A program made the position numbers and the translations under genes. This document shows positions 1-32,800 of a stretch of DNA of 35,148 bases, in pieces; the first letter of the stretch is position 1, and each line of letters begins with the position of its first letter. Where the stretch lies: IMG/VR virus record IMGVR_UViG_2718218452_000003. One strand, given 5' to 3'. The notes under the pieces were generated by a model that saw only the letters and a list, made by a program, of their open reading frames with translations, had not been told where the DNA came from and did no database searches. The DNA is from a virus (Duplodnaviria > Heunggongvirae > Uroviricota > Caudoviricetes).

Positions 1-141
1 TTACTGCTTACACTGTAAGAACGCCGCAAACTCCGCTCCCCAGAAGCTCATCCGTATTTCGCACAGCGAACCGTGCAGCATCCAGATGATGAGGATTGCC
101 GTCACGCAGAACGTGATGGCCGTAAGCGATTTTTGCGACAT
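1..141 (-). CDS. hok: Hok/Gef-family type I toxin peptide (46 aa)
   Basis: Reverse-strand ORF from ATG (141..139) to TAA (3..1) translates to MSQKSLTAITFCVTAILIIWMLHGSLCEIRMSFWGAEFAAFLQCKQ. It has one N-terminal hydrophobic helix and the SLCEIR signature of Hok/Gef toxins. AGGAG lies 8 nt upstream of the ATG. The 8..271 ORF overlaps it out of frame, a Mok-like arrangement. Too short to appear in the supplied ORF track. Confidence 0.6.
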   Translation of the reverse strand: MSQKSLTAITFCVTAILIIWMLHGSLCEIRMSFWGAEFAAFLQCKQ

Positions 142-331: not shown

Positions 332-592
332 TTAATTCTGAGATAAGGGCAAACTCATCTGATTGTTCCCCCTGTGTGAAGCTGGCAGAGCCTGCCACGG
401 TATGTCTTCTGAAGAATGAACTTCTGAGGTGTGTTTTGATGTGAACTTATGAAAAGCTTCCAGTGTTGAGAAGCATACGCCGCATTCCAGGTTATTACAC
501 TGGTAATACTTTTGCCGCACGGTGTTTGAGTCATTTTCCGGACGACTGGTGCGGATACGGGCAGACGCGCCACAAAGTGGACAACGGAACAT
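332..592 (-). CDS. ogr: Ogr/Delta-family zinc-finger late-gene transcription activator
   Basis: N-terminus MFRCPLCG...YQCNNLECGVCF gives a C-x2-C-x22-C-x4-C zinc finger typical of P2 Ogr. GGAGG RBS precedes the ATG at 592. Sits beside gpD as in P2. Confidence 0.8.
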   Translation of the reverse strand: MFRCPLCGASARIRTSRPENDSNTVRQKYYQCNNLECGVCFSTLEAFHKFTSKHTSEVHSSEDIPWQALPASHRGNNQMSLPLSQN

Positions 593-1016
593 AGCGACCT
601 CCCTTAACGTGGTGTTTCTATTATTCTAAGTTGTACTAATACTGATTCCAACTAACTGCTTGCTTTGAGTGAAAACCAGAAGTTTGCAGTTGAATTTTCA
701 CTGAGTAAGTAGTCGAGATTGACTATGCACTAGTAGGATTATTCTACGTGATTGAAGGCAACTTGTTGGTATGTAGATGATTTTACTGGTGGCAGTGTTG
801 TAAGTTTTTATCTCCCCGGTTTGTCTTTGACGCTATCTACTAGTTATTTAGTCGTGCTAAAATAAAACGCTGATTGAGTTCCTTTGGGTTAGGTTGATAA
901 CTCTCAGAGACTTTGGGAGGTGTAAGATTCGAACTTAATCGCTAAGTTTCATACTCTTGGCACTCGTTTGCCTCTACAAAAGTATGTTTTTTAACACAAA
1001 TAAAAGAAGTGCATTT

Positions 1017-2429
1017 ATGAGTATTCAACATATAAAAGTTGGCAGTATATCAGAAATTATTGATCTATCATCTAATTCTGGCGAGCATGCTGATTCTCAT
1101 CCTTTTATCCTCTCGAAGAACTGTGTATGGGGAGAACAGGGGGCAGAAATATCAATTGAGAAATTGCGCCAAAATATTGAGCCCTGGCTAACAGCTCTCT
1201 TCCAATCAGAGCATTTAAATTTATTAATCGGTGCAGGCTTAAGCTCGGCTATTCAAAAATCAGCTACAGGTTTATCTCCAGTAGGGATGGGGTGGATTAA
1301 TGATTTAAAAGTATGTAAAAGCGAAATAGATGAATTTTCCACTCAGGCTGCAAAAGCTGCAGGTCGCGACAGAGGAAATATAGAAGACCAAATTAGAACT
1401 ATCAATGAACTTATTAAAGGTCTCGAAATTTTAACGGTGTTAAATACTCCTCAACCAGAAAATCCGCCACCTCCTTATTCTGCTTATAGAAACTTAAAAG
1501 CAGACTTGGGCGAGCTCAAAGGCGAGCTTTCTAGATGCTTGGGGGAGTTTTCTAAATCTATAATTAAAGGAGAATATTTAATCAAAACTGCTGAACCAGC
1601 CCGGAAAGAGGAAACTTTCAACTATCTAGTTAGTTTTTTGATGAGCTTTGCAAGTAGAACTGCCACTCGCGATAGGCTACATATCTTTACAACAAATTAT
1701 GACCGTATTATTGAAGTGGGTGCTGAGCTTGCTGGTTTAAGACTTATTGATCGCTTTGTAGGAAGTATTGCTCCAGTATTTCGATCCTCAAGATTAGAAG
1801 TTGATTATCATTATAATCCTCCTGGAATCCGTGGTGAACCAAGATACTTGGAGGGCGTGGCACGTTTTACTAAACTTCATGGTTCCCTTGATTGGCATGA
1901 ACAAAATAATGCGATTAGGCGCTTTGGCTTACCCTTTGGAGCACGTTCTGTTGAGCCGTTTTTGGAAGCCGAAGGTCATCAAAGCAATGGCTATGAAAAA
2001 CTGATGATTTACCCTAATTCAGTAAAAGACAGAGAAACAGCCGAGTATCCTTATGTTGAGCTATTTCGAGATCTGGCAGCAGCAACTAGCCGTCCAAATA
2101 GCACATTAGTCACTTATGGTTATAGCTTTGGTGATGAGCATATCAATAGAGTAATTGAAGACATGCTTACGGTACCTTCCACTCATATAGTAATAATAGC
2201 CTTTGGCGATCCACTTGGCAGAATTATGCGTTTCATTAGTAATAGTGGAAGAAAAGCACAGATCACCCTTTTAATGGGAGATCATTTAGGAGACTTCAAA
2301 ACTTTAGTTGATAACTATTTACCTAAACCAGCTATTGATAAAGCATCAATCAAGATGGCAGAGTTGCTCAAACAAAGAGGCTTTATGCAGTTCAAAGAGT
2401 TAGGTAATTCAGCCGAAGTTGAGGTATGA
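1017..2429 (+). CDS. SIR2-family (sirtuin-like) NAD-binding protein, putative NADase effector of a SIR2-HerA defence module
   Basis: Translation carries GAGLS (DNA 1230..1244), TTNYD (1689..1703) and KLHGS with the catalytic-type His (codon 1878..1880). Start chosen at ATG 1017; the track ORF begins at TTG 957. Stop overlaps the downstream gene start. Low GC compared with the phage backbone. Confidence 0.75.
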   Translation: MSIQHIKVGSISEIIDLSSNSGEHADSHPFILSKNCVWGEQGAEISIEKLRQNIEPWLTALFQSEHLNLLIGAGLSSAIQKSATGLSPVGMGWINDLKVCKSEIDEFSTQAAKAAGRDRGNIEDQIRTINELIKGLEILTVLNTPQPENPPPPYSAYRNLKADLGELKGELSRCLGEFSKSIIKGEYLIKTAEPARKEETFNYLVSFLMSFASRTATRDRLHIFTTNYDRIIEVGAELAGLRLIDRFVGSIAPVFRSSRLEVDYHYNPPGIRGEPRYLEGVARFTKLHGSLDWHEQNNAIRRFGLPFGARSVEPFLEAEGHQSNGYEKLMIYPNSVKDRETAEYPYVELFRDLAAATSRPNSTLVTYGYSFGDEHINRVIEDMLTVPSTHIVIIAFGDPLGRIMRFISNSGRKAQITLLMGDHLGDFKTLVDNYLPKPAIDKASIKMAELLKQRGFMQFKELGNSAEVEV

Positions 2430-2431
2430 CA

Positions 2432-4465
2432 ATGAGTTATTTACCAATAGAAAAAATAGAACAACTAAGAATTGGAACTGTTGAGTTTGTATCACCTAAT
2501 GAAATTAGGGTGTCTTTAGAGATTGATTCTCCTGATTCAGTATCACTTCAAGGTGGGGCGCCTCGTAATTTTCCTAGAATAAATAGTTATATTTTAATCC
2601 GTAGTGATGACGGGTTTCTTGTTGGGCAAGTTGAGTGGATTGCAATAGAAAACTCGCCATATCCCAAAAGAAGAGGCTTACAAGATTTTGGGTTGATAGA
2701 CCTTCCTTTCCCACTTAAAAAGCTCAGTATCAATCCAGTTGGTACATTGAGAGTTGATAGAAAAAACGAAGGTTTCAGGTTCACGAGAGGAACTGATGCT
2801 TTCCCTTCGGTTGGTGACTCTGTGCTTTTGCCTACTGACCGACAATTACAATCAATAATTGAATCAGGTGATAATAGAAGGGTAAAAATAGGGGATAGCC
2901 CCCTAGCTAACAATGCTGAAATAAAAGTAGACCCCGATAGACTTTTCGGACGACATATAGCTGTTTTAGGTAATACGGGTAGTGGTAAATCATGTTCGGT
3001 GGCCGGCTTAATTCAATGGTCTCTTGATGCTGTTTTACAACAGGGAAAATCTCCAAATGCTCGATTTATAATACTTGATCCGAACGGAGAATATAGTAGA
3101 GCTTTAGGGCCAGAATCAAGATATAAGGGTAAACTATTACGTGTAGAGGCTAACATCGATGTCGGAGAGATGGATCTTAAAGTACCTTCATGGTTATGGA
3201 ATAGTTCTGAGTGGGCTGCTTTCACTCAAGCAAGTTCAAAGGTGCAACTTCCTTTACTACGTCGTGCTTTGAGGGCAATGAGGAATAATCTTCTATCAGA
3301 AGATGATGTGAAAATTCAAGCCAAACGCTTTTGCGGTATCCTTCTTGTATCTATGAGACAGCAGGCAAGTCAAGGTCAGATATATGTGAATAGTGGATCT
3401 GCTAAAGGTTTGGTTGAAACTTTGGGTTCTTGGAGAGATAGTATTTCTATCTTAAACGAGAGAATTGTTGATAAATCGCTCGATAAGCTAATAAACACAA
3501 TAAATACGTATCTTTCTTCACGAAGTGGATCTTCTTGGCCAGCAAAGCCTGTTGTTTCCGAGATTGAGTTGTTGATTAATGGATTTAGAGATGCATATAC
3601 AGCTCTAGGGGGAGATGAACAAGAACTTCTTCCAAAAAGCGAAGATGCGCCTATGCGTTTTAAAGGCGATGATTTTGTCGCATATCTCGAAGCTCTGGCT
3701 CAAGAAACAGGTACAGAACAATTCGTGGAGTTTCTTTTGACTCGTATTCGAACAATGCTAGGTGACACTCGTATTAGTGCAGTAACCAATGATTCTGTAA
3801 AGCCTATAAGTTTAACTAATTGGTTAGACACTTTTCTCGGTAAAAATGAACAAGGATCTATAACTGTTATAGATTTATCTCTAGTACCAAATGAAATAAT
3901 TCATTTGGTAACAGCTGTAATTTCTAGGGTGGCTTTTGAAGCACTACAACGTTATCGAAGATTAAATGGAAGGCCGCTACCAACAGTTTTAGTTGCAGAA
4001 GAAGCGCATACGTTTATTAAACGTTACAAGGAAGATAGTGAAACTCAGTCAGTCTCTGATATATGTTGCAAGGTGTTTGAAAAGATTGCACGGGAAGGAA
4101 GAAAGTTTGGGCTAGGCCTTGTTGTTTCTTCCCAAAGGCCATCAGAGCTATCTCCGACGGTTTTATCTCAATGTAATACTTTTTTGTTGCACAGGATTAG
4201 TAATGATAGAGATCAAGAGCAAGTACATAGACTTGTTCCAGATAATATGAGAGGGCTGTTGAGAGAGCTGCCATCGTTACCATCTAGGCATGCTATTTTA
4301 CTTGGATGGGCTTCAGAACTTCCTGTTTTAGTTAGAATGAAAGAGCTTACTGAAAAACAACGACCGCAATCTGATGATCCTGATTTTTGGGATGTGTGGT
4401 CTGGCACTACAAAAGAACCTCGGAAAGTTAATTGGCAACAGATAGCTGATGATTGGCAAAGTTGA
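2432..4465 (+). CDS. HerA/FtsK-like P-loop ATPase, partner of the SIR2 protein
   Basis: Walker A VLGNTGSGKS (DNA 2969..2992), Walker B-like LVAEEAHTF and an SQRPSE motif, with an N-terminal barrel-like region. GAGG lies 8 nt upstream of ATG 2432; an alternative ATG at 2426 overlaps the SIR2 stop, suggesting translational coupling. Confidence 0.75.
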   Translation: MSYLPIEKIEQLRIGTVEFVSPNEIRVSLEIDSPDSVSLQGGAPRNFPRINSYILIRSDDGFLVGQVEWIAIENSPYPKRRGLQDFGLIDLPFPLKKLSINPVGTLRVDRKNEGFRFTRGTDAFPSVGDSVLLPTDRQLQSIIESGDNRRVKIGDSPLANNAEIKVDPDRLFGRHIAVLGNTGSGKSCSVAGLIQWSLDAVLQQGKSPNARFIILDPNGEYSRALGPESRYKGKLLRVEANIDVGEMDLKVPSWLWNSSEWAAFTQASSKVQLPLLRRALRAMRNNLLSEDDVKIQAKRFCGILLVSMRQQASQGQIYVNSGSAKGLVETLGSWRDSISILNERIVDKSLDKLINTINTYLSSRSGSSWPAKPVVSEIELLINGFRDAYTALGGDEQELLPKSEDAPMRFKGDDFVAYLEALAQETGTEQFVEFLLTRIRTMLGDTRISAVTNDSVKPISLTNWLDTFLGKNEQGSITVIDLSLVPNEIIHLVTAVISRVAFEALQRYRRLNGRPLPTVLVAEEAHTFIKRYKEDSETQSVSDICCKVFEKIAREGRKFGLGLVVSSQRPSELSPTVLSQCNTFLLHRISNDRDQEQVHRLVPDNMRGLLRELPSLPSRHAILLGWASELPVLVRMKELTEKQRPQSDDPDFWDVWSGTTKEPRKVNWQQIADDWQS

Positions 4466-4563
4466 GATGTTTAACCAATTTCCAGTGGGGCTATAAGCAG
4501 TGTCTCATATTTGAGATAGGAAGGAGCTGATTCCTTTCGATTGATACAGTACGAAATTATATA

Positions 4564-4589
4564 TGTCCGCTCTTGGCACAGAGCGGACA
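4564..4589. terminator. Hairpin between convergent HerA-like gene and gpD (9-bp stem TGTCCGCTC/GAGCGGACA)
   Basis: Perfect 9-bp inverted repeat with an 8-nt loop. AT-rich tract on the minus-strand side. Could terminate gpD or cargo transcripts. Confidence 0.4.
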
Positions 4590-4633
4590 GTCAGAAAACT
4601 GAAGGGGGTAGGCGTGCAATACATCTTAGCTGA

Positions 4634-5743
4634 TCAAGCTGTTTCTGCTATCCATTCCGGGATTTTTGCCTCAAGTTCAAGCTGCGTGGTAAAGCCGCTG
4701 TTATCAATGGTGTGCTCGGCTTTTGCAATAATCCAGTCCTGATTATCAATCTCGCTTTTAAATCCTGTTACCGTGCCATGCATTTCGGGGTAGAGTTCTG
4801 CTCGTCCACGTGCCAGCGTGATGGAGAATGATGCGGCTCCGCGTTGTAGTTGTTGCCACTTTGCCGCCGCTGCGCGTCTTGCTGCCTGCTCGTTCTGATA
4901 AGTCTTGCGTAACACAAACACATTGCCTTCCGCGCCTTCCATATAATCACCTTCACGGCTGCTGCTTTTCTCTTTTTTCGGTTTTGGCGGTTTGCGGCGT
5001 TTCACGCTGACTTTTTTCTTTTTCCCGTAATTAAGATCAAGCCAGTAAGCGCGTACCCCCGTATACGACTCGCGGTCAGCAATGCGGAACTGATGGCGAT
5101 CGCCGCTGCTGCGTGTGATGGCGAACGATGGCAACGGCTGGCCCTGTGCGTTCACGCCACCGCCGGGCATGATGAATAACAGATTACCGCTTTTTACTGT
5201 GGTGATTGCGCCCAGCATTTCCGCCATGCGCGTAAGGAAGGACATGTCACTTTCTTCGGTCTGGTCGGCGTGGTCGATTTCGATATCCATCAGCATTTCG
5301 CTGATTTGCGGTTTCAGACCGTACCGATGAGCGATGGCGGATACCACACGCTCAACGGTCACATCATGCCAGGACACCTCACGTTTAACGTTAAATTCAT
5401 CCCGAAAATCTGCGCTTCTGGCTGAAACAGTCAGCCTGTCCGGCGGTCCTTCGTGTGCGATTTCATCAACAATGTAAGTGCCTTTTTCTGTCAGCGGTTC
5501 GCCTTTCCAGCCAATGAGAACCGTCAGGCGCGCGCCCCGTGGCGCTAGCTGCAACTGACCATCCGCATCATCCAGCGTGATGGTGAGCTGGTCCGCCTCA
5601 AATCCCCGGTTGTCGGTCAGTGACAGGGTCATCAGGCGCTCTGCCACGCCTGACAGCGTTTTACCCTCCGCGAGAATATCAAAATCCGGCATTTTCACGG
5701 GGTCTGTGCCCTGACTGAGCAATTGCATGGTGGTATCGGTCAT
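4634..5743 (-). CDS. D: Tail protein D (late control gene D, baseplate hub-like)
   Basis: 370 aa from ATG 5743, with GGGAGGGA upstream. Includes a lysine-rich linker and a C-terminal ...TQLELE region typical of P2 gpD. The track ORF is extended upstream to 5875. Confidence 0.85.
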   Translation of the reverse strand: MTDTTMQLLSQGTDPVKMPDFDILAEGKTLSGVAERLMTLSLTDNRGFEADQLTITLDDADGQLQLAPRGARLTVLIGWKGEPLTEKGTYIVDEIAHEGPPDRLTVSARSADFRDEFNVKREVSWHDVTVERVVSAIAHRYGLKPQISEMLMDIEIDHADQTEESDMSFLTRMAEMLGAITTVKSGNLLFIMPGGGVNAQGQPLPSFAITRSSGDRHQFRIADRESYTGVRAYWLDLNYGKKKKVSVKRRKPPKPKKEKSSSREGDYMEGAEGNVFVLRKTYQNEQAARRAAAAKWQQLQRGAASFSITLARGRAELYPEMHGTVTGFKSEIDNQDWIIAKAEHTIDNSGFTTQLELEAKIPEWIAETA

Positions 5744-5900: not shown

Positions 5901-7085
5901 ATGAGTGAAACTCGTTTTCATGGTGCCCGTGTTACGGAAAATACCGACCTGGTAACAGCGATTAACGATGTTGATTCCAGCGTTATCGGTATCGTGGCAA
6001 CGGCGGATGATGCGGACGCGAAGCTGTTCCCGCTGAACAAGCCCACATTGCTGACCCGCGTCAATGACGTGCTGGGAAAATGCGGAACAACGGGGACGCT
6101 TTATCGTGCGCTTAAGGCCATCGCAGACCAGGTGAGCACAAAGGTGATCGTCGTTCGCGTGGCTGAACACAAAGAAGAAGACGGAAAGACGCAGGATCAA
6201 CTGGTTATCGGTGGTTCTGAGGATGACGGCAGCTATACGGGGATGTATGCGTTGCTTGTTGCAGAGCAGGATGAAAGCATCGGATACCGTCCGCGTATTC
6301 TGGCCGCGCCGGAGCTGGACACGGAGGCTGTAACAAAATCCCTGTGCGTGATTGCAGGTAAACTGCGCGCGTTTGTGTATGCCTCATGTCACGGCTGTAA
6401 CACGATGGCTGAGGCGATTACCTATCGCCAGAAATTCAACGAACGTGAGGTGATGCTCTTATGGCCGGACTTCATCGCCTACAACCCGAAAAGTGGCAAA
6501 AACGAAACGTTCCCCGCGCCTGCCTATGCGTGCGGCCTTCGTGCGTACATTGACCATGAGCAGGGGTGGCACAAATCACTGTCCAACGTTCCGGTTAAAA
6601 ATGTGCTGGGGATGTCGAGGCATGTGTTCTGGTCGTTGCAGGCCGAAGACAGCGATGCCAACAGCCTCAACAACAAAGAAATCACGACCATTATTCGTCG
6701 CAACGGGTTCCGCTTCTGGGGCAACCGCACACCGGAAACGAACGCCTACATCTTTGAGGTGTATACCCGAACCGCACAGGTGCTGGCTGATTCAATTGCG
6801 GAAGCGCAGTTTGAAACCATCGACAGTCCACTGACGCCTGCGAACGTGAAGGATGTTATCAGTGCCATCAGGGCAAAACTGGATTCGCTGGTTACTGCCG
6901 GGAAACTGATTGGCGCGGAGTGCTGGTATGACGTGGTGGATAACGGCACCACGGATTTACGTCAGGGGCGTGTGCGTATTCGCTACAAATATACGCCCGT
7001 TCCGCCACTGGAAGACATGGAGCTTTACCAGACGTTTACTGATGAATTCTTTGGTCCCGCATTTGCGGTGCTGGGAGGTGCCTGA
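5901..7085 (+). CDS. FI: Tail sheath protein FI
   Basis: 394 aa. Conserved sheath blocks such as FPLNKP, LRAF, WPDF, DQEQGWHK-like and RRNGFRFWGNRT match recalled P2 FI. Confidence 0.9.
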   Translation: MSETRFHGARVTENTDLVTAINDVDSSVIGIVATADDADAKLFPLNKPTLLTRVNDVLGKCGTTGTLYRALKAIADQVSTKVIVVRVAEHKEEDGKTQDQLVIGGSEDDGSYTGMYALLVAEQDESIGYRPRILAAPELDTEAVTKSLCVIAGKLRAFVYASCHGCNTMAEAITYRQKFNEREVMLLWPDFIAYNPKSGKNETFPAPAYACGLRAYIDHEQGWHKSLSNVPVKNVLGMSRHVFWSLQAEDSDANSLNNKEITTIIRRNGFRFWGNRTPETNAYIFEVYTRTAQVLADSIAEAQFETIDSPLTPANVKDVISAIRAKLDSLVTAGKLIGAECWYDVVDNGTTDLRQGRVRIRYKYTPVPPLEDMELYQTFTDEFFGPAFAVLGGA

Positions 7086-7597
7086 TGGCTGTACCAAAAC
7101 ATCTTCGCTTTTTTACGTTGTTTGTGGATGGTGAAAACGAAGTGGGTAAAGTGACATCCGTCACGCCGCCCAAACTGACGCGCAAAACCGACAGCTATCG
7201 TGGTGGTGGCATGATGGGGGCGGTAAGTATTGATCTCGGTCTGGACGACTCCGCGCTTGATGCGAGTTTTGTTATGGGGGGGGCTGTTCGTGCGCTGTTC
7301 CTTAAATATGGCGGCACGATTGACGGCACGCTGCTGCGTTTTGCGGGTGAATACTACACCGATGCAGAAAGCGATCTGTATGAAATCGAGATGCGCGGAC
7401 GTGTGACGGAAATTGATATGGGGGAAGCCAAACAGGGCGAAGCCACATCACACACTTACGCTGTCAAAAACACCTACTACAAGCTGAGCGTTAACGATCG
7501 CCCGCTGTGGGAAATCGACCTGTTGAACCACATCTACCGGAAGGACGGCAAGGACATTGTGCCTGACCGTATCCGTTCCGCGCTTGGGCTTGGCTGA
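7085..7597 (+). CDS. FII: Tail tube protein FII
   Basis: 170 aa. Start overlaps the FI stop (TGATG). Contains PPKLTRK...YRGGGM and GEAKQGE blocks like P2 FII. Confidence 0.9.
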   Translation: MAVPKHLRFFTLFVDGENEVGKVTSVTPPKLTRKTDSYRGGGMMGAVSIDLGLDDSALDASFVMGGAVRALFLKYGGTIDGTLLRFAGEYYTDAESDLYEIEMRGRVTEIDMGEAKQGEATSHTYAVKNTYYKLSVNDRPLWEIDLLNHIYRKDGKDIVPDRIRSALGLG

Positions 7598-7652
7598 TAA
7601 GTAATATGCAGGCGGCGCAGTGCGTCGCCTCTGACTGAAAAGGAGACAACTG

Positions 7653-8027
7653 ATGAAAGACATCGATACTGAAACCCGGAATAACACCGTGGCGGATGAT
7701 GTGACGGCAGGTGAGGATATGGCTGTCGAACGTGGCGTAAAACTTTCCCGGCCAATTGAGCGTGGTGCCGAAAAAATCACATATGTGGAAATCACCGGGG
7801 CTATTGAGCAGGCGGGATCCCTGCGTGGTCTGTCGCTGTCTGATGTGCTGAATCTGAAAGCGGATACCATGTTCACGCTGTTGCCTCGCGTGACCTCGCC
7901 ACGACTGGATGAAGTGATGATTAAAAAAATGTCGTCACGCGATTTTATTCAGTTGTGCGCTGTGGCTGTAAATTTTATGAGCGAGCCAGACTCTGGCGCG
8001 AAGAGCGTGCAGGAGACGGCAGCGTAA
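7653..8027 (+). CDS. E: Tail assembly chaperone E (zero-frame product)
   Basis: 124-aa ORF in the conserved position between the tube and tape-measure genes. Confidence 0.75.
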   Translation: MKDIDTETRNNTVADDVTAGEDMAVERGVKLSRPIERGAEKITYVEITGAIEQAGSLRGLSLSDVLNLKADTMFTLLPRVTSPRLDEVMIKKMSSRDFIQLCAVAVNFMSEPDSGAKSVQETAA

Positions 8028-8191
8028 TTACCCTGGTGTGCTTTGAGCACATCGAAGATCTGGTGGCGGATATTGCCGCCATTTTTAACTGGTCGCCCGC
8101 CGAAATCTTCATGATGACGCCCGGCGAAGTGGTTAGCTGGCGTGAGCGGGCGGCACTTCGCAGCGGGAATGTAGATAATGAAGACTCTTGA
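7653..8191 (+). CDS. E': E+E' tail chaperone fusion made by programmed -1 frameshift at A-run 7923..7929
   Basis: A run of seven A at 7923..7929 in the E frame (ATT AAA AAA ATG). The -1 frame is open from 7925 to the stop at 8189..8191 and overlaps the T start. This mirrors P2 E/E' and lambda G/GT. Confidence 0.65.
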
Positions 8192-10985
8192 TATCCGGGT
8201 CGCTTTCAGCGCCGTTGACAGGCTGACCCGGCCTGCCGAAAACGCCCGCCGCCTGATGGGGCAGTTTGGTGACTCCATCCAGCGAACGCAGGGGGCGATC
8301 AAAAATCTCGAGCGTCAGGCGCGTTCATTTGAGCGCGCCCGTGACGCTGTCAGTAAAGCGGATGCGGGCATCGTGAAAGCACGACGCCAGCTTAACGCCC
8401 TTAATCAGTTACAACGCACGGGTACAGTGCTCAGCGAAAAACAACAAAAGCTGATGCAGCAGTTAAGCACCCGGCTTGAACGCCTGAATGAATCGCGCAC
8501 ACGGGAAATTCAGAAAATGCGGGAGCTTGGCGGAGAACTGAAACGCCACGGCATTTCCCTGACAGGCAGCGATAACACCATTCAGCAGGCCATCAGACGC
8601 ACCGAACAATACAACAACCAGCTTGAACGCGAACGGCAGGCGCTTGCGCGTGTAACGCGGGCGCGTGAGCGGTATTCGCGCGCGCAGGAAACAGCGGGAA
8701 AACTGAAAACAGGTGGTGCGCTGGCAATTGGTGCGGCAGCGGCGGGCGGCTATGCTGCCGGGCGTTTTTTGCAGCCTGCGATCGGGTTCGGGAAAGAGAT
8801 GTCCCGCGTTCAGGCACTGACGCGAATCGACAAAAACAGCCCGCAGTTTAAGGCGCTGCGTGAGCAGGCGTTAAAACTTGGCTCTGAAACGCAGTTCACC
8901 GCAGGCGATGCCGCCAGTGGGCAGGCATTTCTTGCAATGGCTGGCTTCACACCGCAGGCCATTCAGGCTGCGCTCCCTGGCGTACTGAGCATGGCAACGG
9001 CTGGCGGTATGGACCTCGGTGAGACGGCGGATATTGGCTCAAATATTCTGACGCAGTTCGGTCTTTCTGCTGACCAGATGGACCGGGTCGGCGACACACT
9101 CACCGCAGCGTTTACCCGTACCAACACTGACCTTCGCGCACTGGGTGAAACCATGAAATATGCAGGTCCGGTGGCGGGTAAGCTGGGAATATCGCTGGAG
9201 CAGGCCGCAGCGATGGCGGGCGTGCTGGCGAATATGGGTATCAGGGGGAGTGATGCTGGTACGGCAATGCGTGCCAGCCTGGCTCGTCTGGCATCACCGC
9301 CAAAGGCGGCAGCAGAGGCGCTGAAAGAGCTTGGCGTGTCTGTCTCGGATGCCGGGGGCAAAATGCGCCCGATGGAGGATGTGCTGGCTGACCTTTATAA
9401 AGCTACCCGCAAATACGGGGAAGTTGACCGGGTATCGTTCTTTAAGGACATTGCCGGAGAAGAGGCTTTCACATCATTTATGGCCCTCGTTGATGCGGCA
9501 GGTGACGGCTCCTTACCCAAACTGAGAAAAGAACTTGAAGGCGCGCGCGGTGAGGCTGAACGCACGGCAAAGGTTATGGCCAACAACCTTGACGGCGATC
9601 TGAAATCACTCAGCAGTGCATGGGAAGGGTTGCGCATCCGCATTGCAGATCTGATTGACGGTCCGCTGCGTTCTGTCACGCAGTGGCTCACGCGTGTGGT
9701 ATCAAAGGTGACGGCGCTGGCGCAGGCCCATCCCGCACTGACGCGCCAGCTACTGATTGCAGGCGGTGCACTGCTGGCAATGACTGCAACGGTTGGCTCG
9801 TTGTCGCTGGCTATTGGTGTGTTTGCTGGCCCGCTGGCAAAACTGCGTCTTGGTTTTTCCCTCCTGACCGGATCAATGAATGCTGTCAGGGTTCTGCCAG
9901 CACTATGGGGAATGGTGACGGGTTCCGTTTCTTTACTGGGAGGCGCTATCGGGGCGTTGTTCAGTCCGGTTGGTCTTATCGTGGTTGCGCTTGCCGGAGC
10001 TGCCGTTCTTATCTGGAAATACTGGGATCCCATCAGGGCATTTTTTGCCGGAGTGTTCAGCGGGATTATGGAAAGGCTGACCCCGTTGCGCGAAACCTTT
10101 GAACGGTTTGGTCCTGTTTTTGACGCAATCGGGAGTGGGATCAGCCAGGTGTTTAACTGGTTTAAATCGCTGCTGTCACCGATGGAGTCCAGCAAGGAAA
10201 CTCTGGATAAATGTACCAGTGCTGGCGAGATATTCGGTAACGTTCTTGGCGGTGCGTTACAACTTGTTCTGACACCTGCAAAAATGTTGCTGGATACGCT
10301 GGCGTGGATACTTGAAAAGCTTGGTGTGCTTCCGGATGAAGCGGAAAGGGCGCGCAAGAAAATCGAAGACGCACAGCGTGCGGCCATTCTTCAGGACAAG
10401 GTTGCCTTGCTTCAGGGGGACCTGGCGAAAATCAATCCGCCGAAGCCTGTGGAAAATGGCAATGGCACCGGAGGTGATAACCCCAAAGACAATAAACTGC
10501 TCACAGACAGCAATACCGGTACGCTGCGCAGACTCAGCAAAATTGCTGATAACACAGGTAAGCTGGTTGATGAGACGAAAAAACGCATTGGCCCCGGCGA
10601 TATTGTCTTTAAGAACCTGCCCCGCGCACTTGCTGTTCGTGGGGAGTGGCAGGAGCGGAAGATTGCACAGGTCAGTAAGCCTGCTTCCGCAATCAACATC
10701 ACACCTGTGGTCCCGGCTCCGCTGCCTCCGGCGCTGGTCCCTGTTGTTGCGGCCAGCTCCCGCCCGGTGGCGGAGGCCATACGATCGCCAGTGGCATCAG
10801 TTCCTGCAACTTCCCGTAACCGGGAGCCTGCTGTCTCCGGATTTTGCGGTGAAATTCATGTTCATCTGCATAACGTTGTTACGCAGAATCCCCGCGAACT
10901 GGCGAAACTGGTCGGTGAAATGGTCAGGGCAGAAATGGAACGGCGCGCCCGTGCCGGGCGTGGCAGTTTTTACGATAAAGATTGA
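8178..10985 (+). CDS. T: Tail tape measure protein T
   Basis: 935 aa. Coiled-coil N-terminal region, Gly/Ala-rich hydrophobic central segments, in the conserved position after E/E'. Confidence 0.9.
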   Translation: MKTLDIRVAFSAVDRLTRPAENARRLMGQFGDSIQRTQGAIKNLERQARSFERARDAVSKADAGIVKARRQLNALNQLQRTGTVLSEKQQKLMQQLSTRLERLNESRTREIQKMRELGGELKRHGISLTGSDNTIQQAIRRTEQYNNQLERERQALARVTRARERYSRAQETAGKLKTGGALAIGAAAAGGYAAGRFLQPAIGFGKEMSRVQALTRIDKNSPQFKALREQALKLGSETQFTAGDAASGQAFLAMAGFTPQAIQAALPGVLSMATAGGMDLGETADIGSNILTQFGLSADQMDRVGDTLTAAFTRTNTDLRALGETMKYAGPVAGKLGISLEQAAAMAGVLANMGIRGSDAGTAMRASLARLASPPKAAAEALKELGVSVSDAGGKMRPMEDVLADLYKATRKYGEVDRVSFFKDIAGEEAFTSFMALVDAAGDGSLPKLRKELEGARGEAERTAKVMANNLDGDLKSLSSAWEGLRIRIADLIDGPLRSVTQWLTRVVSKVTALAQAHPALTRQLLIAGGALLAMTATVGSLSLAIGVFAGPLAKLRLGFSLLTGSMNAVRVLPALWGMVTGSVSLLGGAIGALFSPVGLIVVALAGAAVLIWKYWDPIRAFFAGVFSGIMERLTPLRETFERFGPVFDAIGSGISQVFNWFKSLLSPMESSKETLDKCTSAGEIFGNVLGGALQLVLTPAKMLLDTLAWILEKLGVLPDEAERARKKIEDAQRAAILQDKVALLQGDLAKINPPKPVENGNGTGGDNPKDNKLLTDSNTGTLRRLSKIADNTGKLVDETKKRIGPGDIVFKNLPRALAVRGEWQERKIAQVSKPASAINITPVVPAPLPPALVPVVAASSRPVAEAIRSPVASVPATSRNREPAVSGFCGEIHVHLHNVVTQNPRELAKLVGEMVRAEMERRARAGRGSFYDKD

Positions 10986-10991
10986 GGAGTC

Positions 10992-11486
10992 ATGGCCATG
11001 ATGATGATCTATGGCATGTTTGTTTTTGAGCTGCGCACGCTGCCGCATCAGCAGTTACAGCAAAACAAAAGCTGGCGGCATGTGAAAAATGAACGCGTTA
11101 ACCGTTCAGCAAGCTGGCAGTATATCGGTGCAGGTGATGATCGCATCGTTCTTTCTGGTGTGCTTTATCCTGAAATTACAGGTGGCGAAGTGTCGCTGTC
11201 GCTGCTGACCACGCAGGCGTATACAGGACGACCCTGGCCTTTGATTGATGGCGTCGGGCAGATTTACGGCATGTATGTCCTGACCGGAACGAATACGATC
11301 CGTTCCGAGTTTGATCGCTACGGTAAGGCGAAAAAGATAGAATTTTCACTGACCCTTGAACGCTGTGATGAGGATTTGCGGGAGCGCCTGCAATCCTCAT
11401 CGTTCAGCGATATGCTGTCCGGCTTCAAAGATAAGGTGGCGTCATCCCTTAACAGTGCGGTCAGTTCTGTTAAGGGACTGTTCTGA
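10992..11486 (+). CDS. U: Tail protein U
   Basis: 164 aa following T, with GAGGAG RBS. N-terminal FVFELRTLPHQQLQ...SWRH resembles P2 gpU. Confidence 0.85.
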   Translation: MAMMMIYGMFVFELRTLPHQQLQQNKSWRHVKNERVNRSASWQYIGAGDDRIVLSGVLYPEITGGEVSLSLLTTQAYTGRPWPLIDGVGQIYGMYVLTGTNTIRSEFDRYGKAKKIEFSLTLERCDEDLRERLQSSSFSDMLSGFKDKVASSLNSAVSSVKGLF

Positions 11487-11530
11487 TTTAACGCAAATCA
11501 CAAATAGTTAGATAAACAGAAATAACGATA

Positions 11531-11549
11531 AGGCCCGATATTCGGGCCT
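11531..11549. terminator. Bidirectional intrinsic terminator between convergent U and G (stem AGGCCCGA/TTCGGGCCT)
   Basis: GC-rich 8-bp stem with a 3-nt loop. T-rich on the plus side (TTCGTTTATTC) and A/T-rich on the minus side. Confidence 0.6.
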
Positions 11550-11554
11550 TTCGT

Positions 11555-12094
11555 TTATTCTGGTTGATCAGGGAACGTAACGGGTAATTCAGTGGTATCA
11601 GTGGTCTCAACTTGTTGCACGTACCGCATCCAGCGCATCAGTTGTTGCTTATCTGAATCACTGATAATCCCTAATGCAAGCTGGGTCTGCCAGAACTGCG
11701 TTTTTTCTCTGGCCTGCTGTAATAACCTTTGTTTCTGGTTTTCAGCCTGCAAGCGTTGCTCTTCTTCGGTATACACACGTTTAATGACTGAGCCATCTTT
11801 AAACATCCAGTTACCTGAAATATCAGCGCGTCGGTTTGCTGTAATATTAGGCAACTCGACAACACTTTTTCCTTCCGGGCAAATTGCAGTTACATCCGTT
11901 TGCACGTCGCATATGACATTATTTTCATCATATGCAATCTTTATGGTGTCTGGCTGAAAGTTCTTTTGTTCCTCATACCAGTTTTTACCATCTTCAGCGA
12001 ATAACCAGACAACGCCGGAGTTTTTAGTTAACAGGTACTGTTCTTTTGTTTTTGGATTGCCCGGTTTTATATTTTTTAAATGCATCATAATCAA
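11555..12094 (-). CDS. G: Tail fibre assembly protein G
   Basis: 179 aa immediately downstream of, and overlapping, the tail fibre gene. C-terminal region is typical of Tfa chaperones. Confidence 0.8.
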   Translation of the reverse strand: MIMMHLKNIKPGNPKTKEQYLLTKNSGVVWLFAEDGKNWYEEQKNFQPDTIKIAYDENNVICDVQTDVTAICPEGKSVVELPNITANRRADISGNWMFKDGSVIKRVYTEEEQRLQAENQKQRLLQQAREKTQFWQTQLALGIISDSDKQQLMRWMRYVQQVETTDTTELPVTFPDQPE

Positions 12095-14154
12095 ACACTC
12101 GATACGTTATACCATGTACCATTAATATTTTTTTGAATTGGTCTGTAATAAACACCACCAATATTATCGGCAGAGTTTGAGCCTGTATCCTGAACGATAA
12201 TCCCGGTATATGCGCAACCAGATGGAGCCTGATGCGTCCATGTTGTACCGTTATTTGCTGGTTTATAGGATGACGCACCACCAAGTCTAATATCCCGGAC
12301 ATAGCGTGAATCAAAGTTGCCATAGTTAGATGGTGATACCTGCCCGTTAACAGCAAAAGTGATGCTGTTATCTGTATTTCTCTGACTGTAAAAATGCCAG
12401 CCTGCATCATCACCTAATTCAGCCACCACCGGACGACTTGCGTTTCCCCACAAATTGAATGCGGCTTCCTTCGTGGATGTATTGCTGCTGCTGACCGTGA
12501 ACTTTTTCCCGCTACCGGCACGTACTTTGGTACTTGAGACAATATCACCTGTAACACTCAGGCCATGCCCCATTGACACTCCGCCATTGGCGTTATTGAT
12601 AGTCAGCGGTCTTAAGCCGTTCCATGTCCCAAATTTATCGCCAGAGGCCGTCAGCATTAAATATGTGCTGCCGCCATCATTCCTGATAAAGAATCCATAA
12701 TTGCCATAAGCAATGCGCAGACCATTAGCACTGAGTGATGTAATCTCACCTCTTGAACGGAGACCATAAGCGGAGCTGAGTGATAATTCTTCCTGAGCGT
12801 CATAGTTTCCTGTCGCCCAGCGAATTACCCCGCCCTGTACTGTTTCATGCCAGATAGTGTCTCCTTCTCCACCACGAAACTTTCTGAGATATTTTTTGCC
12901 GCCTCTGGTGCCTGAACATAAGGCCGTAGACATATAGGCATTCTGGCTTCCGCCATCCTGATTAATCGTTCCGGTCATTGAGTCGCCCTGACGATTCCAG
13001 TCACGACGCCAGCCGGGGGAGTAGCCGTCCCCATGATTAATGTAAGTGAATTGCGCGCTGGTTGTACCGCCACCACTTGATGTTGTCGGCGTGGTCACTC
13101 GGATAGTGATTGCAGATTTAGTTCCCATGACCTCGACGACACAACCAGCCAGGTGGATATCACCACATCCGGTATCCGTAATGATTTTGTTATTTGCATA
13201 TGACCATGAGCCTTTGCACATCCAGTACGGATGATTAAATGCACCACGGGAATCCAGCCATTCAATAAACTGAGCGGTTGTCCAGTTTCCGGCTTCAGTG
13301 CTCAAAGCGCCGCTATAAGCACGACAGGCACCGATATTTTTCGTGAAGGTATCCTTTCCCGGAATATCCGCACCGTTCTGATCTTTCTGAAGACGTTTTT
13401 CAGCATTGTCATAGGCAGACTTCACCGCTTTTGATGTTGCGGCCAGCGTTTCAGAATCACTGTTGGTGGCGCTACTGAGCTGGACAAGACCTTTTCGCGC
13501 TGTAGTGGCATCCTGTGCAGTGTATTTCCCGTTAGCAAGGTCATAGGCTGCCTTGACCGCTTTCGGCGTTGCGGCCAGTGCTTCAGACGTGCTGTTGGTG
13601 GCGCTACTGAGTTGAACAAAGCCTTTTGCGGTCAGCGAGGCGTCCGGGTGACGTCGTGACTGTTCATGTTCTTTCAGTTTGTCATTCACGTAATCCACTG
13701 TGGCCATAACCATGGTGTTATCCACGGTAAGCGCCACGGTGGCAGTGCTGGATACGCTCAGAATGGTGCGAAATGTTTGTGCACGTCCGGATCCTTCGGC
13801 AACGGCTGGCTTGTAACTTTCGGCAGTATTGCCCACCGCGATTAAATCGCCGTGCTCATCAAATACACCAATTTCCCGGATCCAGAATCCGCCCGTTTCA
13901 GGAGGAATAACCAGCTCCGCAATAATGCGGTTCTGATGTGTTGCGTCCAGGATGACGCGATTAACAGTATGTCGCCACACCTCATGCACCAGACGGGTCT
14001 GCTTACTGTCTGGTGTGGGCAACGTGCCGCCACCGTCGCCCACGGCCATGTGAGTCAGGCGGACAGGATTACCATCTGGCGCGGCTGCCTGAGCTAATTT
14101 TTTGGCACCCGTATCGGTGATAACGGTTTTAAATTTTCGTGTTGTGGTACTCAT
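12091..14154 (-). CDS. H: Tail fibre protein H
   Basis: 687 aa. Conserved N-terminal baseplate-attachment region, internal tandem KGxVQLSSATNS...KAVKxAYD repeats, Gly/Ser-rich distal domain. Confidence 0.85.
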   Translation of the reverse strand: MSTTTRKFKTVITDTGAKKLAQAAAPDGNPVRLTHMAVGDGGGTLPTPDSKQTRLVHEVWRHTVNRVILDATHQNRIIAELVIPPETGGFWIREIGVFDEHGDLIAVGNTAESYKPAVAEGSGRAQTFRTILSVSSTATVALTVDNTMVMATVDYVNDKLKEHEQSRRHPDASLTAKGFVQLSSATNSTSEALAATPKAVKAAYDLANGKYTAQDATTARKGLVQLSSATNSDSETLAATSKAVKSAYDNAEKRLQKDQNGADIPGKDTFTKNIGACRAYSGALSTEAGNWTTAQFIEWLDSRGAFNHPYWMCKGSWSYANNKIITDTGCGDIHLAGCVVEVMGTKSAITIRVTTPTTSSGGGTTSAQFTYINHGDGYSPGWRRDWNRQGDSMTGTINQDGGSQNAYMSTALCSGTRGGKKYLRKFRGGEGDTIWHETVQGGVIRWATGNYDAQEELSLSSAYGLRSRGEITSLSANGLRIAYGNYGFFIRNDGGSTYLMLTASGDKFGTWNGLRPLTINNANGGVSMGHGLSVTGDIVSSTKVRAGSGKKFTVSSSNTSTKEAAFNLWGNASRPVVAELGDDAGWHFYSQRNTDNSITFAVNGQVSPSNYGNFDSRYVRDIRLGGASSYKPANNGTTWTHQAPSGCAYTGIIVQDTGSNSADNIGGVYYRPIQKNINGTWYNVSSV
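13409..13645. repeat. Tandem imperfect repeat (2 x ~105 bp, period 132 bp) inside tail fibre gene H
   Basis: Plus-strand text tcataggcagacttcaccgctttt...ggtggcgctactgag recurs 132 bp later with a few substitutions. Encodes the duplicated 44-aa fibre motif. Confidence 0.7.
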
Positions 14155-22565: not shown

Positions 22566-24317
22566 ATGATTCAGGACGCTTTTGTGCGCCAGCGTGCGCG
22601 ACAACTTTACTGGCAGGGTTATCCGCCCGCAGAAATATCACGTCTGATGGGAATAAACCCGAACACGATTTATGCGTGGAAAAAACGCGACCAGTGGGAT
22701 GAAACGCCACCCGTGCAGCGTGTCACGCAGTCCATCGATGCGCGCCTCATCCAGCTCACTGAAAAACAGAATAAAACAGGTGGTGACTTCAAGGAAATAG
22801 ACCTGCTGACCCGGCAGCTTAAAAAACTGCATGATGGCCAGCCGGATGCGACGGCCACAGGGAAGAAAGGCCGGGCGAAAAAACTCAAAAATCATTTCAC
22901 GCCGGAACAGATTGCCGCACTGCGGGAAAAAATCATCAGCAGGCTGGAGTGGCATCAGCGGGGCTGGTTTGACTCCCTGACCCTTTGCAGGGAAGCCGGG
23001 ATACGTAACAGGATGATCCTGAAATCCCGACAGATTGGGGCGACCTGGTATTTTGCACAGGAAGCACTGCTGATGGCGCTGCGTGACGATGTGGCGCAAC
23101 CTTACCAGCGTAACCAGATTTTTTTGTCTGCGTCGCGTCGTCAGGCGTTCCAGTTTAAAAGCATTATTCAGAAGGCTGCGGCTGAAGTTGATGTGGAGCT
23201 GAAAGGGGGCGATAAAATCATCCTCTCCAACGGCGCAGAGCTGCATTTTCTCGGCACTTCTGCTGCGTCGGCGCAGTCCTATACGGGCAATTTTTATTTT
23301 GATGAATTTTTCTGGGTCAGTCGCTTTGCTGAACTGCGCAAGGTGGCTGGCGCTATGGCAACCCTCAGCGGACTGCGGCGCACCTACTTCTCCACGCCAT
23401 CCACCGAAACGCACGAAGCATACGCCTACTGGAACGGCGACCGCTGGAACGAGAAAAAGGCCACGCATAAACGCCAGCGTTTTTCTGTGGACTGGAAAAC
23501 GCTGCATAACGGGCTTATCTGCCCTGACCGGATGTGGCGGCAAATTGTCACGCTGGAAGATGTGGTTAATCACGGCTGGAAACACACCGATATCGACGAA
23601 ATTCGTGATGAATACACCGAAGACGAGTTCCTCAATCTCTATATGTGTGAGTTTGTCCGCGAAGGGGAATCGGCATTTAACCTGAATATCCTGATTGGCT
23701 GCGGTGTTGACGGATACGACGACTGGAAAGACTGGAAACCTTTTGCTCCCCGCCCGATGGGGAATCGTCCGGTATGGATTGGGTATGACGCAAACGGCAG
23801 CAGTGGCAACGGCGACAGCGGCGCTGTGTCCGTGGTGGTTCCTCCGGCTGTTCCTGGTGGCCGTTTTCGAACGGTGGAGACGCGACGCGTTCAGGGGCTG
23901 GAGTTTGAAGAACAGGCCAGAGTCATTGAAGATTTCACGTATCGCTACAACGTGGAACACATCGGCATTGATGTGACGGGCGGGAACGGGGAGGCTGTTT
24001 ATCAGATAGTGAAACGGTTTTTCCCTGCCGCTATTCCGTACACCTTCACGCTGTCATCAAAACGGTCGCTGGTACTGAAAATGCTGCAAATAATGCGTGC
24101 CGGGCGGTGGGAATACGATCGCGCCGAACGCGAGCTGGTCGCGGCCTTTAACGCCGTGCGTAAGGTGAAAACACCGGGCGGCTTTATCACTTACGAAACG
24201 GACCGCGCGAGGGGGATCAGCCACGGCGACCTTGCGTGGGCAACCATGCTTGCTGTCATTAACGAACCAATTGGCGGCGAAGGAGAAAACGAGCGTTTCA
24301 CGGTTATGGAGTTCTGA
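22566..24317 (+). CDS. P: Terminase ATPase (large) subunit P
   Basis: 583 aa, transcribed divergently from O as in P2. GGGGGA RBS. Confidence 0.9.
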   Translation: MIQDAFVRQRARQLYWQGYPPAEISRLMGINPNTIYAWKKRDQWDETPPVQRVTQSIDARLIQLTEKQNKTGGDFKEIDLLTRQLKKLHDGQPDATATGKKGRAKKLKNHFTPEQIAALREKIISRLEWHQRGWFDSLTLCREAGIRNRMILKSRQIGATWYFAQEALLMALRDDVAQPYQRNQIFLSASRRQAFQFKSIIQKAAAEVDVELKGGDKIILSNGAELHFLGTSAASAQSYTGNFYFDEFFWVSRFAELRKVAGAMATLSGLRRTYFSTPSTETHEAYAYWNGDRWNEKKATHKRQRFSVDWKTLHNGLICPDRMWRQIVTLEDVVNHGWKHTDIDEIRDEYTEDEFLNLYMCEFVREGESAFNLNILIGCGVDGYDDWKDWKPFAPRPMGNRPVWIGYDANGSSGNGDSGAVSVVVPPAVPGGRFRTVETRRVQGLEFEEQARVIEDFTYRYNVEHIGIDVTGGNGEAVYQIVKRFFPAAIPYTFTLSSKRSLVLKMLQIMRAGRWEYDRAERELVAAFNAVRKVKTPGGFITYETDRARGISHGDLAWATMLAVINEPIGGEGENERFTVMEF

Positions 24318-25363
24318 TGAGCAGAAAAAATAAAAAAGTGCGCATGAGTTCACGCATTGATCTCGCTGATGCACTCAGGAAAGAATCGTCGCTCAGTGCA
24401 TTCACTTTTGATGGTCCTTATCGCCTGACCGGGCATGATTTGCTGGACAATATGTACTGTGCTGATAACGGGCGGTGGTATGAAACCCCGGTAGACTGGT
24501 ACGGTCTGGCAAGAGCTGCCCGGCAAACGTCCTGGCATCAGTCTGCGCTTTACTTTAAGCGCAATGTATTGCTCGGCTGCTATATTCCGCACCCGCTGCT
24601 TTCCCGGCAGGATTTCTCGGCGCTGGCGCTGGACTGGTTTGTGTTCGGTAACGCATTCCTTGAGCTTCGAAGCAATATGCTCGGCGAACCGCTTAAATTA
24701 CGGCACGCCCTGGCGAAATACATGCGACGCGGAAGCGATCTTGAATCATGGTGGTATGTGCAGGATGGCAAGGATGCGTTTCAGTTTCGCCCTGGTAAAG
24801 TGTGCCACCTGATGAATCCTGACATTAACCAGGAAATCTACGGCATGCCGGAATATCTTGGCGCATTACTCTCGGCCAGCCTGTCTCATTCGGCGGACAT
24901 GTTCAGAAAACTGTATTACGACAACGGATCCCACGCCGGGTGCATCATCTACATCGGTGCAGCGCAGGTAAACCGCGAAAGCATGGACTCCCTGAAAGAA
25001 ACGCTACAGGGTGCACGTGGTGGTGGTGCGTTTAAAAACGTGCTCATTCATGCCCCCAACGGTGGCAAAGAGGGGGTGCAAATTTTGCCGTTCCAGCAGA
25101 TCACCGCAAAGGATGAGTTCATGAATGTTAAGGCGGCATCCCGTGATGATGTGCTGGCTGCGCACCGCGTTCCGCCGCAACTGATGGGGGCGATGCCGGG
25201 CGAAAAAAGTGCGTTTGGTGATGTGGAGAAGGCCGCGCGGGTTTACGCAATTAACGAGCTGATGCCCGTCATGGAGGCCATGAAGCATATCAATGACTGG
25301 CTTGGCGAAGAGGTGATCCGATTTAACCCTTACGCACTGCTGGACACCCAGCCCACATCCTGA
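24317..25363 (+). CDS. Q: Portal (capsid) protein Q
   Basis: 348 aa. Start overlaps the P stop (TGATG). Confidence 0.9.
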   Translation: MSRKNKKVRMSSRIDLADALRKESSLSAFTFDGPYRLTGHDLLDNMYCADNGRWYETPVDWYGLARAARQTSWHQSALYFKRNVLLGCYIPHPLLSRQDFSALALDWFVFGNAFLELRSNMLGEPLKLRHALAKYMRRGSDLESWWYVQDGKDAFQFRPGKVCHLMNPDINQEIYGMPEYLGALLSASLSHSADMFRKLYYDNGSHAGCIIYIGAAQVNRESMDSLKETLQGARGGGAFKNVLIHAPNGGKEGVQILPFQQITAKDEFMNVKAASRDDVLAAHRVPPQLMGAMPGEKSAFGDVEKAARVYAINELMPVMEAMKHINDWLGEEVIRFNPYALLDTQPTS

Positions 25364-25887: not shown

Positions 25888-26244
25888 ATGGAAATGAATA
25901 TGAAAACTGTAACTGATGATGAATTTCGTGAGAACCTGAGTGAAATTCTGGATTACCTTTCTTCCGGTGGCAGTGTCGTTATCACGGCGCAGGGAGGGAA
26001 GGATGTTGTTCTTGCTGGTTCTGATCTTAGTCCTGAAATACGGGCTGTCCTTGGCAAAACCAAAAAACTGCGGGATCAAATAAACAAAATGAAGCAACCA
26101 CTCTTAATAAATGCAGTGAGAGATCTGGAAAAACGTCATCCAGCTCTTGTCGCACAGAGAAAAAAAGGATTGTCTTTTGAAGATGCAATGAAGCGTACAA
26201 GAGAAAAACATGCGGATATCATTAAAAAGCTTGAGGATAACTGA
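25888..26244 (+). CDS. Phd/YefM-like antitoxin
   Basis: N-terminal region FRENLSEILDYLSSGGSVVITAQGGKDVVL fits the Phd/YefM fold pattern. Stop overlaps the toxin start by 1 nt. Alternative ATG starts at 25894 and 25900. Confidence 0.6.
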   Translation: MEMNMKTVTDDEFRENLSEILDYLSSGGSVVITAQGGKDVVLAGSDLSPEIRAVLGKTKKLRDQINKMKQPLLINAVRDLEKRHPALVAQRKKGLSFEDAMKRTREKHADIIKKLEDN

Positions 26245-27528: not shown

Positions 27529-27532
27529 TGGT

Positions 27533-32792: not shown

Positions 32793-32800
32793 AACGCCCT

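Follow-up and report, generated by a model that had tools for sequence, protein, structure and literature searches.

The virus sequence IMGVR_UViG_2718218452_000003, a single strand of 35,148 nucleotides (nt) that is referred to in full as the window, very probably carries a functional two-gene SIR2-HerA anti-phage operon. As predicted from the sequence, this operon sits in a horizontally acquired low-GC cassette at the junction between genes D and ogr of a P88-like prophage (genus Xuanwuvirus, family Peduoviridae). The combination of SIR2 and HerA was reportedly discovered as a defense system by Gao et al. in 2020. A preliminary description, made from the letters of the DNA alone, had placed such a pair at positions 957-4465, and two long plus-strand open reading frames (ORFs) do fill that interval. 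With the start codons that are argued for below, the two genes are:

1017 to 2429, plus strand: gene for a predicted SIR2-family NADase effector of 470 amino acids (aa), assigned by Pfam SIR2_2, PADLOC PDLC04079 and phmmer against the PDB
2432 to 4465, plus strand: gene for a predicted HerA-type (DUF87) hexameric ATPase/translocase of 677 aa, assigned by Pfam DUF87, PADLOC PDLC04098 and the PDB

Profile searches returned the defense-specific PADLOC models on top for both proteins. The SIR2 model PDLC04079 was matched over nearly its whole length (E 3e-155) and the HerA model PDLC04098 across residues 7-678 of 679 aa (E 1.9e-252), with further SIR2 and HerA sub-models of the SIR2-HerA system matching below them. 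E-values of this order (1e-155 and 1e-252) mean that the observation is not due to chance. Pfam assigns the first protein to SIR2_2 and the second to DUF87, the HerA central domain (E 2.7e-23). The preliminary description is thus borne out in naming the pair as SIR2-HerA, and also in regarding it as a known family rather than a new one, since the system is catalogued in PADLOC. It had named a lack of profile matches, or best matches to housekeeping families, as grounds for abandoning this identification; when this was checked, housekeeping families scored far lower.

All of the motifs that had been quoted for the two proteins (GAGLS, TTNYD and HGS for SIR2; GNTGSGKS, VAEEAH and SQRP for HerA) were located. 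In the SIR2 protein, the Rossmann motif GAGLS occupies residues 72-76 (nt 1230-1244), TTNYD residues 225-229 (nt 1689-1703), and LHGS residues 287-290 (nt 1875-1886), and the predicted catalytic residues are N227 and D229 within TTNYD and H288 within LHGS. These three residues align to the catalytic residues N163, D165, and H212 of the Paenibacillus SIR2 (PMC11472057), and N227 and H288 align to the catalytic dyad N226/H287 of the Staphylococcus aureus Sir2 (PMC11514289). In an alignment of 40 homologues with identity down to 56%, N227 and H288 are invariant, along with G72 and G74 of GAGLS and much of the GYSFGDEHIN block, and D229 is nearly so (at least 90%). The protein ends in a conserved helical tail (residues 427-453) and begins with about 60 extra residues that no other profile covers. 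Deacetylase sirtuins contain a Cys4 zinc-binding module in their small domain. The SIR2 protein of the window has three cysteines in all (residues 36, 100, and 174) and zero CxxC pairs, and it therefore lacks that module.

When the SIR2 protein was compared to the PDB using phmmer, the matches were exclusively SIR2 chains from SIR2-HerA complexes. The best were those of Escherichia coli NCTC 11129 (8j4u/8su9, E 3.6e-21), followed by S. aureus (8yhx, E 4e-15) and Paenibacillus sp. 453MF (8w9l/8wld, E 4.7e-9), with the chains assigned to these organisms per PMC11514289. A Foldseek search of the PDB with a low-confidence AF2 model of the SIR2 protein (pLDDT 63) also retrieved SIR2 chains of SIR2-HerA complexes as all of its top 11 matches (E 9e-9 to 7e-4), with TM-scores of just 0.35-0.53 because the model is poor. 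The next matches were the other defense sirtuins SPARSA and DSR2, and housekeeping deacetylase sirtuins appeared at E > 0.02 only, below all of the SIR2-HerA chains. This result is consistent, if weakly, with a predicted SIR2-HerA fold.

In the HerA protein, the Walker A motif GNTGSGKS lies at residues 180-187 (nt 2969-2992, with K186), the Walker B motif LVAEEAH at residues 520-526 (nt 3989-4009, with E523/E524), and SSQRPS at residues 566-571 (nt 4127-4144). Its PDB matches include the HerA chains of Paenibacillus (8wiv/8wld, E 5.5e-48), E. coli (8j4u, E 1.9e-36), and S. aureus (8yho, E 5.4e-29). Three further HerA/ATP-binding chains, 9c1m (E 2e-48), 8xau (E 7.1e-44), and 8ziq (E 1.1e-42), score marginally above the SIR2-partnered HerAs of E. 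coli and S. aureus; we take these three to be from DUF4297-HerA systems. Pairs of the DUF4297-HerA type differ from the pair described here, in which the partner of HerA is a SIR2 protein and not a DUF4297 nuclease. The protein also matches archaeal repair HerA in the PDB, the overall range being 2e-48 to 2e-21, and TdpA more weakly (E 3.5e-8).

Similar to the window pair, the system of E. coli NCTC 11129 (8SU9, 8SUB, 8SXX, and 8J4U) is a two-gene operon of SIR2_2 and DUF87/HerA with TTNYD and HGS in its SIR2 protein, and it supplies both the best PDB sequence match for the window SIR2 and the best Foldseek matches. However, the window proteins are longer, at 470 versus 415 aa for SIR2 and 677 versus 610 aa for HerA. 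The Paenibacillus system (8W9L, 8WLD, and 8WIV) has catalytic residues that align with those of the window and a HerA that matches at E 5.5e-48, but its SIR2 match is weak. The window HerA aligns up to residue ~587 of the 696 in the Paenibacillus chain and, judging by these alignment limits only, probably lacks the long C-terminal arm of the Paenibacillus HerA. In S. aureus (8YHO and 8YHX), SaSir2 is without a C-terminal helix and forms a dimer alone, whereas the window SIR2 has the conserved C-terminal helical tail.

The start codons are where the preliminary description needs revision, because those it had chosen, TTG 957 for SIR2 and ATG 2426 for HerA, are not conserved in homologues, whereas ATG 1017 and ATG 2432 are. 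Gene calling by RefSeq/PGAP on the identical DNA of E. coli strain C7 begins SIR2 at ATG 1017 and HerA at 2432 (window numbering). SIR2 most likely begins at ATG 1017 rather than TTG 957, as judged from this codon and an upstream AAGAAG box both being kept in the homologous loci L007 (85% identical) and L008 (80% identical). For HerA, ATG 2432 is most likely the start rather than ATG 2426: the sequence ATGAGTTA and a GAGGT Shine-Dalgarno sequence 6 nt upstream are both kept in L007 and L008, neither of which has an ATG at position 2426. The SIR2 stop codon (TGA, 2427-2429) ends 2 nt ahead of the HerA ATG, and in homologous cassettes the stop and start overlap as ATGA, so that SIR2 and HerA form one tightly packed operon. 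Translational coupling of the two genes is plausible from this arrangement. The operon is preceded by:

693 to 1016, plus strand: AT-rich non-coding leader upstream of SIR2, delimited by blastn homology

Only the last ~60 nt of this leader are common to other copies of the cassette. Promoter candidates picked by hand in the leader were dropped, as their spacing was wrong. A scan of the whole window against Rfam, leader included, returned zero families at the gathering threshold.

Strong purifying selection acts on both genes. Compared to the 85% and 80% identical copies, the ratio of nonsynonymous to synonymous substitution rates (dN/dS) is 0.06-0.10 for SIR2 and 0.05-0.11 for HerA. The segment has a GC content of 38.9%, versus 54.6% over the stretch of phage genes that begins with D and runs to the portal region (4634-25400), and therefore stands out as acquired DNA. 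By blastn, the window matches L007 at 85% across 958-4517 and L008 at 79% across 951-4468, and the cassette is delimited by the DNA that the window shares with copies elsewhere, one context being a tRNA-Phe island and the other an integrated conjugative element (ICE):

951 to 4517, plus strand: mobile cassette, extent by blastn

The cassette is present in 20 of 5426 complete E. coli genomes. Fifteen of the 20 copies are at least 99.7% identical, and two of these are split by ISVsa5 within SIR2. Three others (85% identical) lie beside tRNA-Phe with integrases and insertion sequence (IS) elements, and the remaining two (80% identical) immediately follow traN in an ICE. Copies about 69-80% identical were found in 217 records of a plasmid collection, mostly from Citrobacter, Escherichia, Klebsiella, and Enterobacter, with the best matches being Vibrio and Proteus records. 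At the protein level, the SIR2 family comprises >7000 clusters at E <1e-10, nearly all of 460-475 aa, and ranges over Gammaproteobacteria, Synergistota, Bacillota, and others. In Thermanaerovibrio velox (Synergistota; L069 2977-11410), a 58% identical SIR2 and a 697-aa DUF87 protein are encoded within a type I restriction-modification (R-M) operon (HsdM, SIR2, HerA, HsdS, Fic, HsdR), beside BREX-type BrxC/PglY-like genes, and in Acinetobacter pittii a SIR2/DUF87 pair adjoins a phage-type integrase. Purifying selection, conserved pairing, and repeated defense-type locations are together what a working defense operon should show.

Several observations weigh against reading the pair as a working defense system of the window. 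The AF2 model of the SIR2 protein is mediocre (mean pLDDT 63, pTM 0.62, from 40 homologues), and its catalytic core is poorly predicted, with residues 247-355 at pLDDT <50. Identity to the closest solved SIR2 is 28.5% over 235 residues. Although the best NCBIfam matches are the "anti-phage SIR2" and "anti-phage HerA" equivalogs, both proteins fall far below the cut-offs, at 128 versus 500 bits for SIR2 and 225 versus 850 bits for HerA; across NF042942, NF042943, and NF042944 the scores are 128 versus 500, 195 versus 800, and 225 versus 850 bits, so that none of the cut-offs is reached. By these scores, the window pair belongs to an as yet uncharacterized subfamily other than those behind the NCBIfam equivalogs, which accounts for RefSeq naming the proteins only generically ("SIR2 family protein" and "ATP-binding protein"). 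A sigma-70 consensus scan of the plus strand of the leader found no promoter-like site. In the pig isolates HCP5S3_I2 (L068 3925-6675) and LCP30S3_I5, SIR2 is split by the IS4-family element ISVsa5 in a cassette that is otherwise identical, which implies that the system can be dispensed with and may carry a cost, and suggests that it is occasionally inactivated. Finally, the 50,697 records of the phage collection contain no match to the cassette DNA, so packaging of the cassette in viable virions is undocumented; at the protein level, the matches of HerA in that collection are distant and terminase-like only.

Some of these points could be taken to mean that the pair is inert or decaying cargo that has lost its function, and the IS insertion in the SIR2 gene of two genomes and the lack of a recognizable promoter in the consensus scan are what such a state might look like. 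However, we give this little credence, as both ORFs are intact with all catalytic motifs kept, dN/dS is as low as 0.05-0.11, and 13 intact, near-identical copies occur across unrelated hosts and countries. It is also improbable, in our view, that the pair is mainly an addiction or stabilization module of the elements that carry it, with SIR2 as a toxin and HerA as its regulator instead of a phage sensor and effector. The cassette is indeed common on plasmids (103 of the 217 plasmid records are conjugative and 65 mobilizable) and on ICE, and the same prophage bears the stability modules Hok and Phd/Doc. Nevertheless, phage protection and infection-triggered NAD+ depletion are what the characterized SIR2-HerA systems show, E. 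coli underwent no growth arrest when both S. aureus proteins were expressed in it (PMC11514289), and the SIR2/HerA pair is also found within R-M/BREX defense islands. Addiction and defense roles do not exclude each other.

The generic RefSeq names and the weak matches to archaeal HerA models might further suggest a housekeeping pair, namely a protein-deacetylase sirtuin with a DNA-repair helicase of the HerA-NurA type. We regard this as extremely improbable. There is no NurA or Mre11/Rad50 neighbor, the neighbors being SIR2, ogr, and D; against the cut-off of 970 for the NCBIfam model helicase_HerA (NF040819), the match reaches just 124 bits; the SIR2 protein is without the Cys4 zinc module, and deacetylase sirtuins came up in Foldseek at E > 0.02 only; and the genes lie in low-GC phage cargo found in just 20 of 5426 E. 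coli genomes. A SIR2-HerA anti-phage operon remains the reading that we prefer.

By its sequence, the carrier is a P88-like E. coli prophage of the genus Xuanwuvirus, family Peduoviridae, and is thus "P2-like" in the broad sense and not P2 itself. The window spans from a hok/gef gene (1-141, minus strand) to an integrase gene ending at 35148, and its tail region is 93-98% identical to the Escherichia phages P88, P88_4B11, and PhiR44_2 and the Citrobacter phage Shae_phiSM. All five carrier genomes inspected (four of them for the ihfA side only) have the prophage downstream of ihfA, and in strain C7 its far end borders btuC. The window is identical to the sequence of E. coli C7 (L001) through 13545, inside the tail-fiber region, and divergent beyond, which indicates the same cassette in mosaic backbones. 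The portal ORF (24317-25363) is intact in the window and frameshifted in C7. The tail block FI-FII-E-E'-T-U (5901-11486) is divergently oriented from D (4634-5743). P2 has a single operon from FI to D. The divergent block was found in every locus that retains FI among 47 related Enterobacterales loci, as well as in P88-type phage isolates, and it is therefore a lineage trait and not a local rearrangement.

The Hok/Gef toxin gene adjoins ogr at the end of the prophage. All of the inspected related prophages have kept it, as have the inspected phage isolates apart from Shae_phiSM, in which no such gene is annotated; no hok/sok RNA was called by Rfam at the gathering threshold. Further low-GC stretches (42-46%) lie at 11000-12500, over the C-terminus of the tail fiber and the assembly genes, and at 32000-34000, in the early/immunity region. 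In the A-Q hotspot of the window (25888-28492), which contains the following genes, no recognized defense system was found:

25888 to 26651, plus strand: Phd/Doc, A-Q site
26818 to 27153, minus strand: ClpX-type zinc-finger protein, A-Q site
27217 to 28492, minus strand: ParR/ParM-like partition genes, A-Q site

PADLOC searches of eight other ORFs of the window (six from the A-Q region, plus two in the early region at 32.3-33.2 kb) gave weak Fic/Doc matches only, and the ORFs in the early/immunity low-GC stretch (32258-32626 and 32801-33178) had no PADLOC match.

The preliminary description had also noted that the module lies outside the two usual cargo hotspots of P2-like phages. This stands insofar as the site is neither A-Q (old/tin) nor G-FI (Z/fun), but the D-ogr junction is itself a recurrent cargo site. 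Around the cassette, the site comprises:

332 to 592, minus strand: ogr, zinc-finger activator of late genes, left flank (Pfam Ogr_Delta, E 4.4e-14; PGAP)
634 to 692, no strand assigned: left junction, common to D-ogr alleles with different cargo and partial in empty alleles (blastn, alignment)
4564 to 4589, minus strand: terminator-like hairpin downstream of D, with a 10-bp stem and T-rich tail (terminator scan)
4634 to 5743, minus strand: late gene D, tail/baseplate hub, right flank (Pfam Phage_GPD; PGAP)

To survey the site, both flanks were joined into one query, and 1205 E. coli records gave a match. In 728 of these, ogr lies right next to D (~40 nt apart, as in JJ1886), and in the rest (~40%) the two are split. 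All eight split records that were opened (L003-L006 and L010-L013) carry other genes at the exact D-ogr position. The occupants are PIN proteins of 356 and 500 aa, a DUF3800 protein, a SEC-C/YecA-family protein, a four-gene HxsDBCA radical-SAM operon, an alpha/beta hydrolase, a domain-less 385-aa protein, and a ComF-type PRTase with a hypothetical protein; a weak HEPN match and two Pfam-less proteins of ~385 aa are also counted among the occupants. PADLOC matched almost none of them. The site is empty in the four sequenced phage isolates. In other species, 44 of 46 loci with both genes are empty, and the other two have a gap of ~1.3-1.5 kb with one ORF of 340-386 aa.

Across four loci with cargo, the conserved left flank stops at window positions 657-692, whereas that of the empty locus L009 stops at 633. 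The conserved right flank resumes at about 4617-4643. The hairpin at 4564-4589 is absent from the empty allele, and a similar hairpin-like sequence is seen by eye at the same place in the alignment of several alleles with other cargo. As a predicted terminator, it would stop antisense late transcription from D into the cargo and ogr. At both junctions (624-649 and 4624-4650) there seem to be a TCTAAGTTG-like word and a degenerate version of the closing codons of D, and a single occurrence seems to lie in the empty allele (L009 6320-6346). A direct repeat around the cargo, which would have hinted at site-specific insertion, is not supported, because alignments of the left against the right junction were no better than shuffles (z -0.4 to 2.7).

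Similar to D-ogr, the A-Q and G-FI hotspots of P2 are variable moron sites with defense genes in P2-like prophages, but the cargo of the window differs from theirs in its position, with the stop codon of D on one side and the ogr promoter on the other. The A-Q hotspot of P2 already has SIR2_2 with DUF87 among its listed cargo, and SIR2 with HerA is listed for the P4 hotspot (Rousset et al. 2022, PMC9122126), while the second P2 hotspot (fun) was described by Vassallo et al. 2022 (PMC9519451). A "third hotspot" has been placed between a tail protein and CI (preprint 10.1101/2024.10.15.618418), and D-ogr falls inside this interval. Similarly, 16% of P2 defense systems have been located "downstream of GpL" (PMC13586616), where D-ogr would be counted. 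In the literature, we found no paper naming the D-ogr junction as a cargo site. The site is thus real but loosely described, and it is more worth following than the module itself. Whether it amounts to a distinct cassette-exchange hotspot of Xuanwuvirus prophages, with its own junction sequences and a cargo-shielding terminator, is a more tentative matter; we think this possible but on balance somewhat doubtful.

In the Paenibacillus system, a SIR2 ring joins a HerA hexamer, and assembly activates the NADase, nuclease, ATPase, and helicase activities (PMC11472057). In S. aureus, HerA binding allosterically activates the NADase of Sir2 (PMC11514289). ATPase, helicase, and nuclease activities are described for the Paenibacillus and E. 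coli systems as well, and the characterized systems deplete NAD+ and protect against phage (PMC11472057, PMC11514289). By analogy, we infer complex formation, NADase activity, and phage protection for the window pair. The HerA ATPase hexamer would dock a ring of SIR2 subunits, and assembly of the complex would allosterically open the NAD+ pocket of SIR2, relieving its auto-inhibition. When a competing phage infects, the complex would hydrolyze NAD+ by way of N227, D229, and H288, with HerA-driven ATPase/helicase and nuclease activities possibly contributing. The infected lysogen would then cease to support phage replication (abortive infection), which would protect clonal lysogens and hence the prophage; the benefit to the prophage would be the exclusion of competing phages from its lysogen. 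As a smaller possibility, the subfamily of the window may differ from the three studied systems in its assembly or trigger, because it is <30% identical to the solved ones, has an extra N-terminal segment in SIR2, and probably has a HerA without the long C-terminal arm.

The module adds one prophage-borne case of SIR2-HerA in a subfamily that is widespread on plasmids, ICEs, and prophages, and this subfamily is a reasonable candidate for comparative biochemistry. The presence of a recognizable defense system also flags D-ogr in P88-like prophages as a defense-type cargo site, which could be mined in the same manner as the P2 A-Q and P4 psu-int hotspots and whose occupants go mostly unrecognized by defense catalogues. 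If D-ogr does prove to be a hotspot in its own right, its other occupants, most of them without a PADLOC match, would be candidate anti-phage genes by their location.

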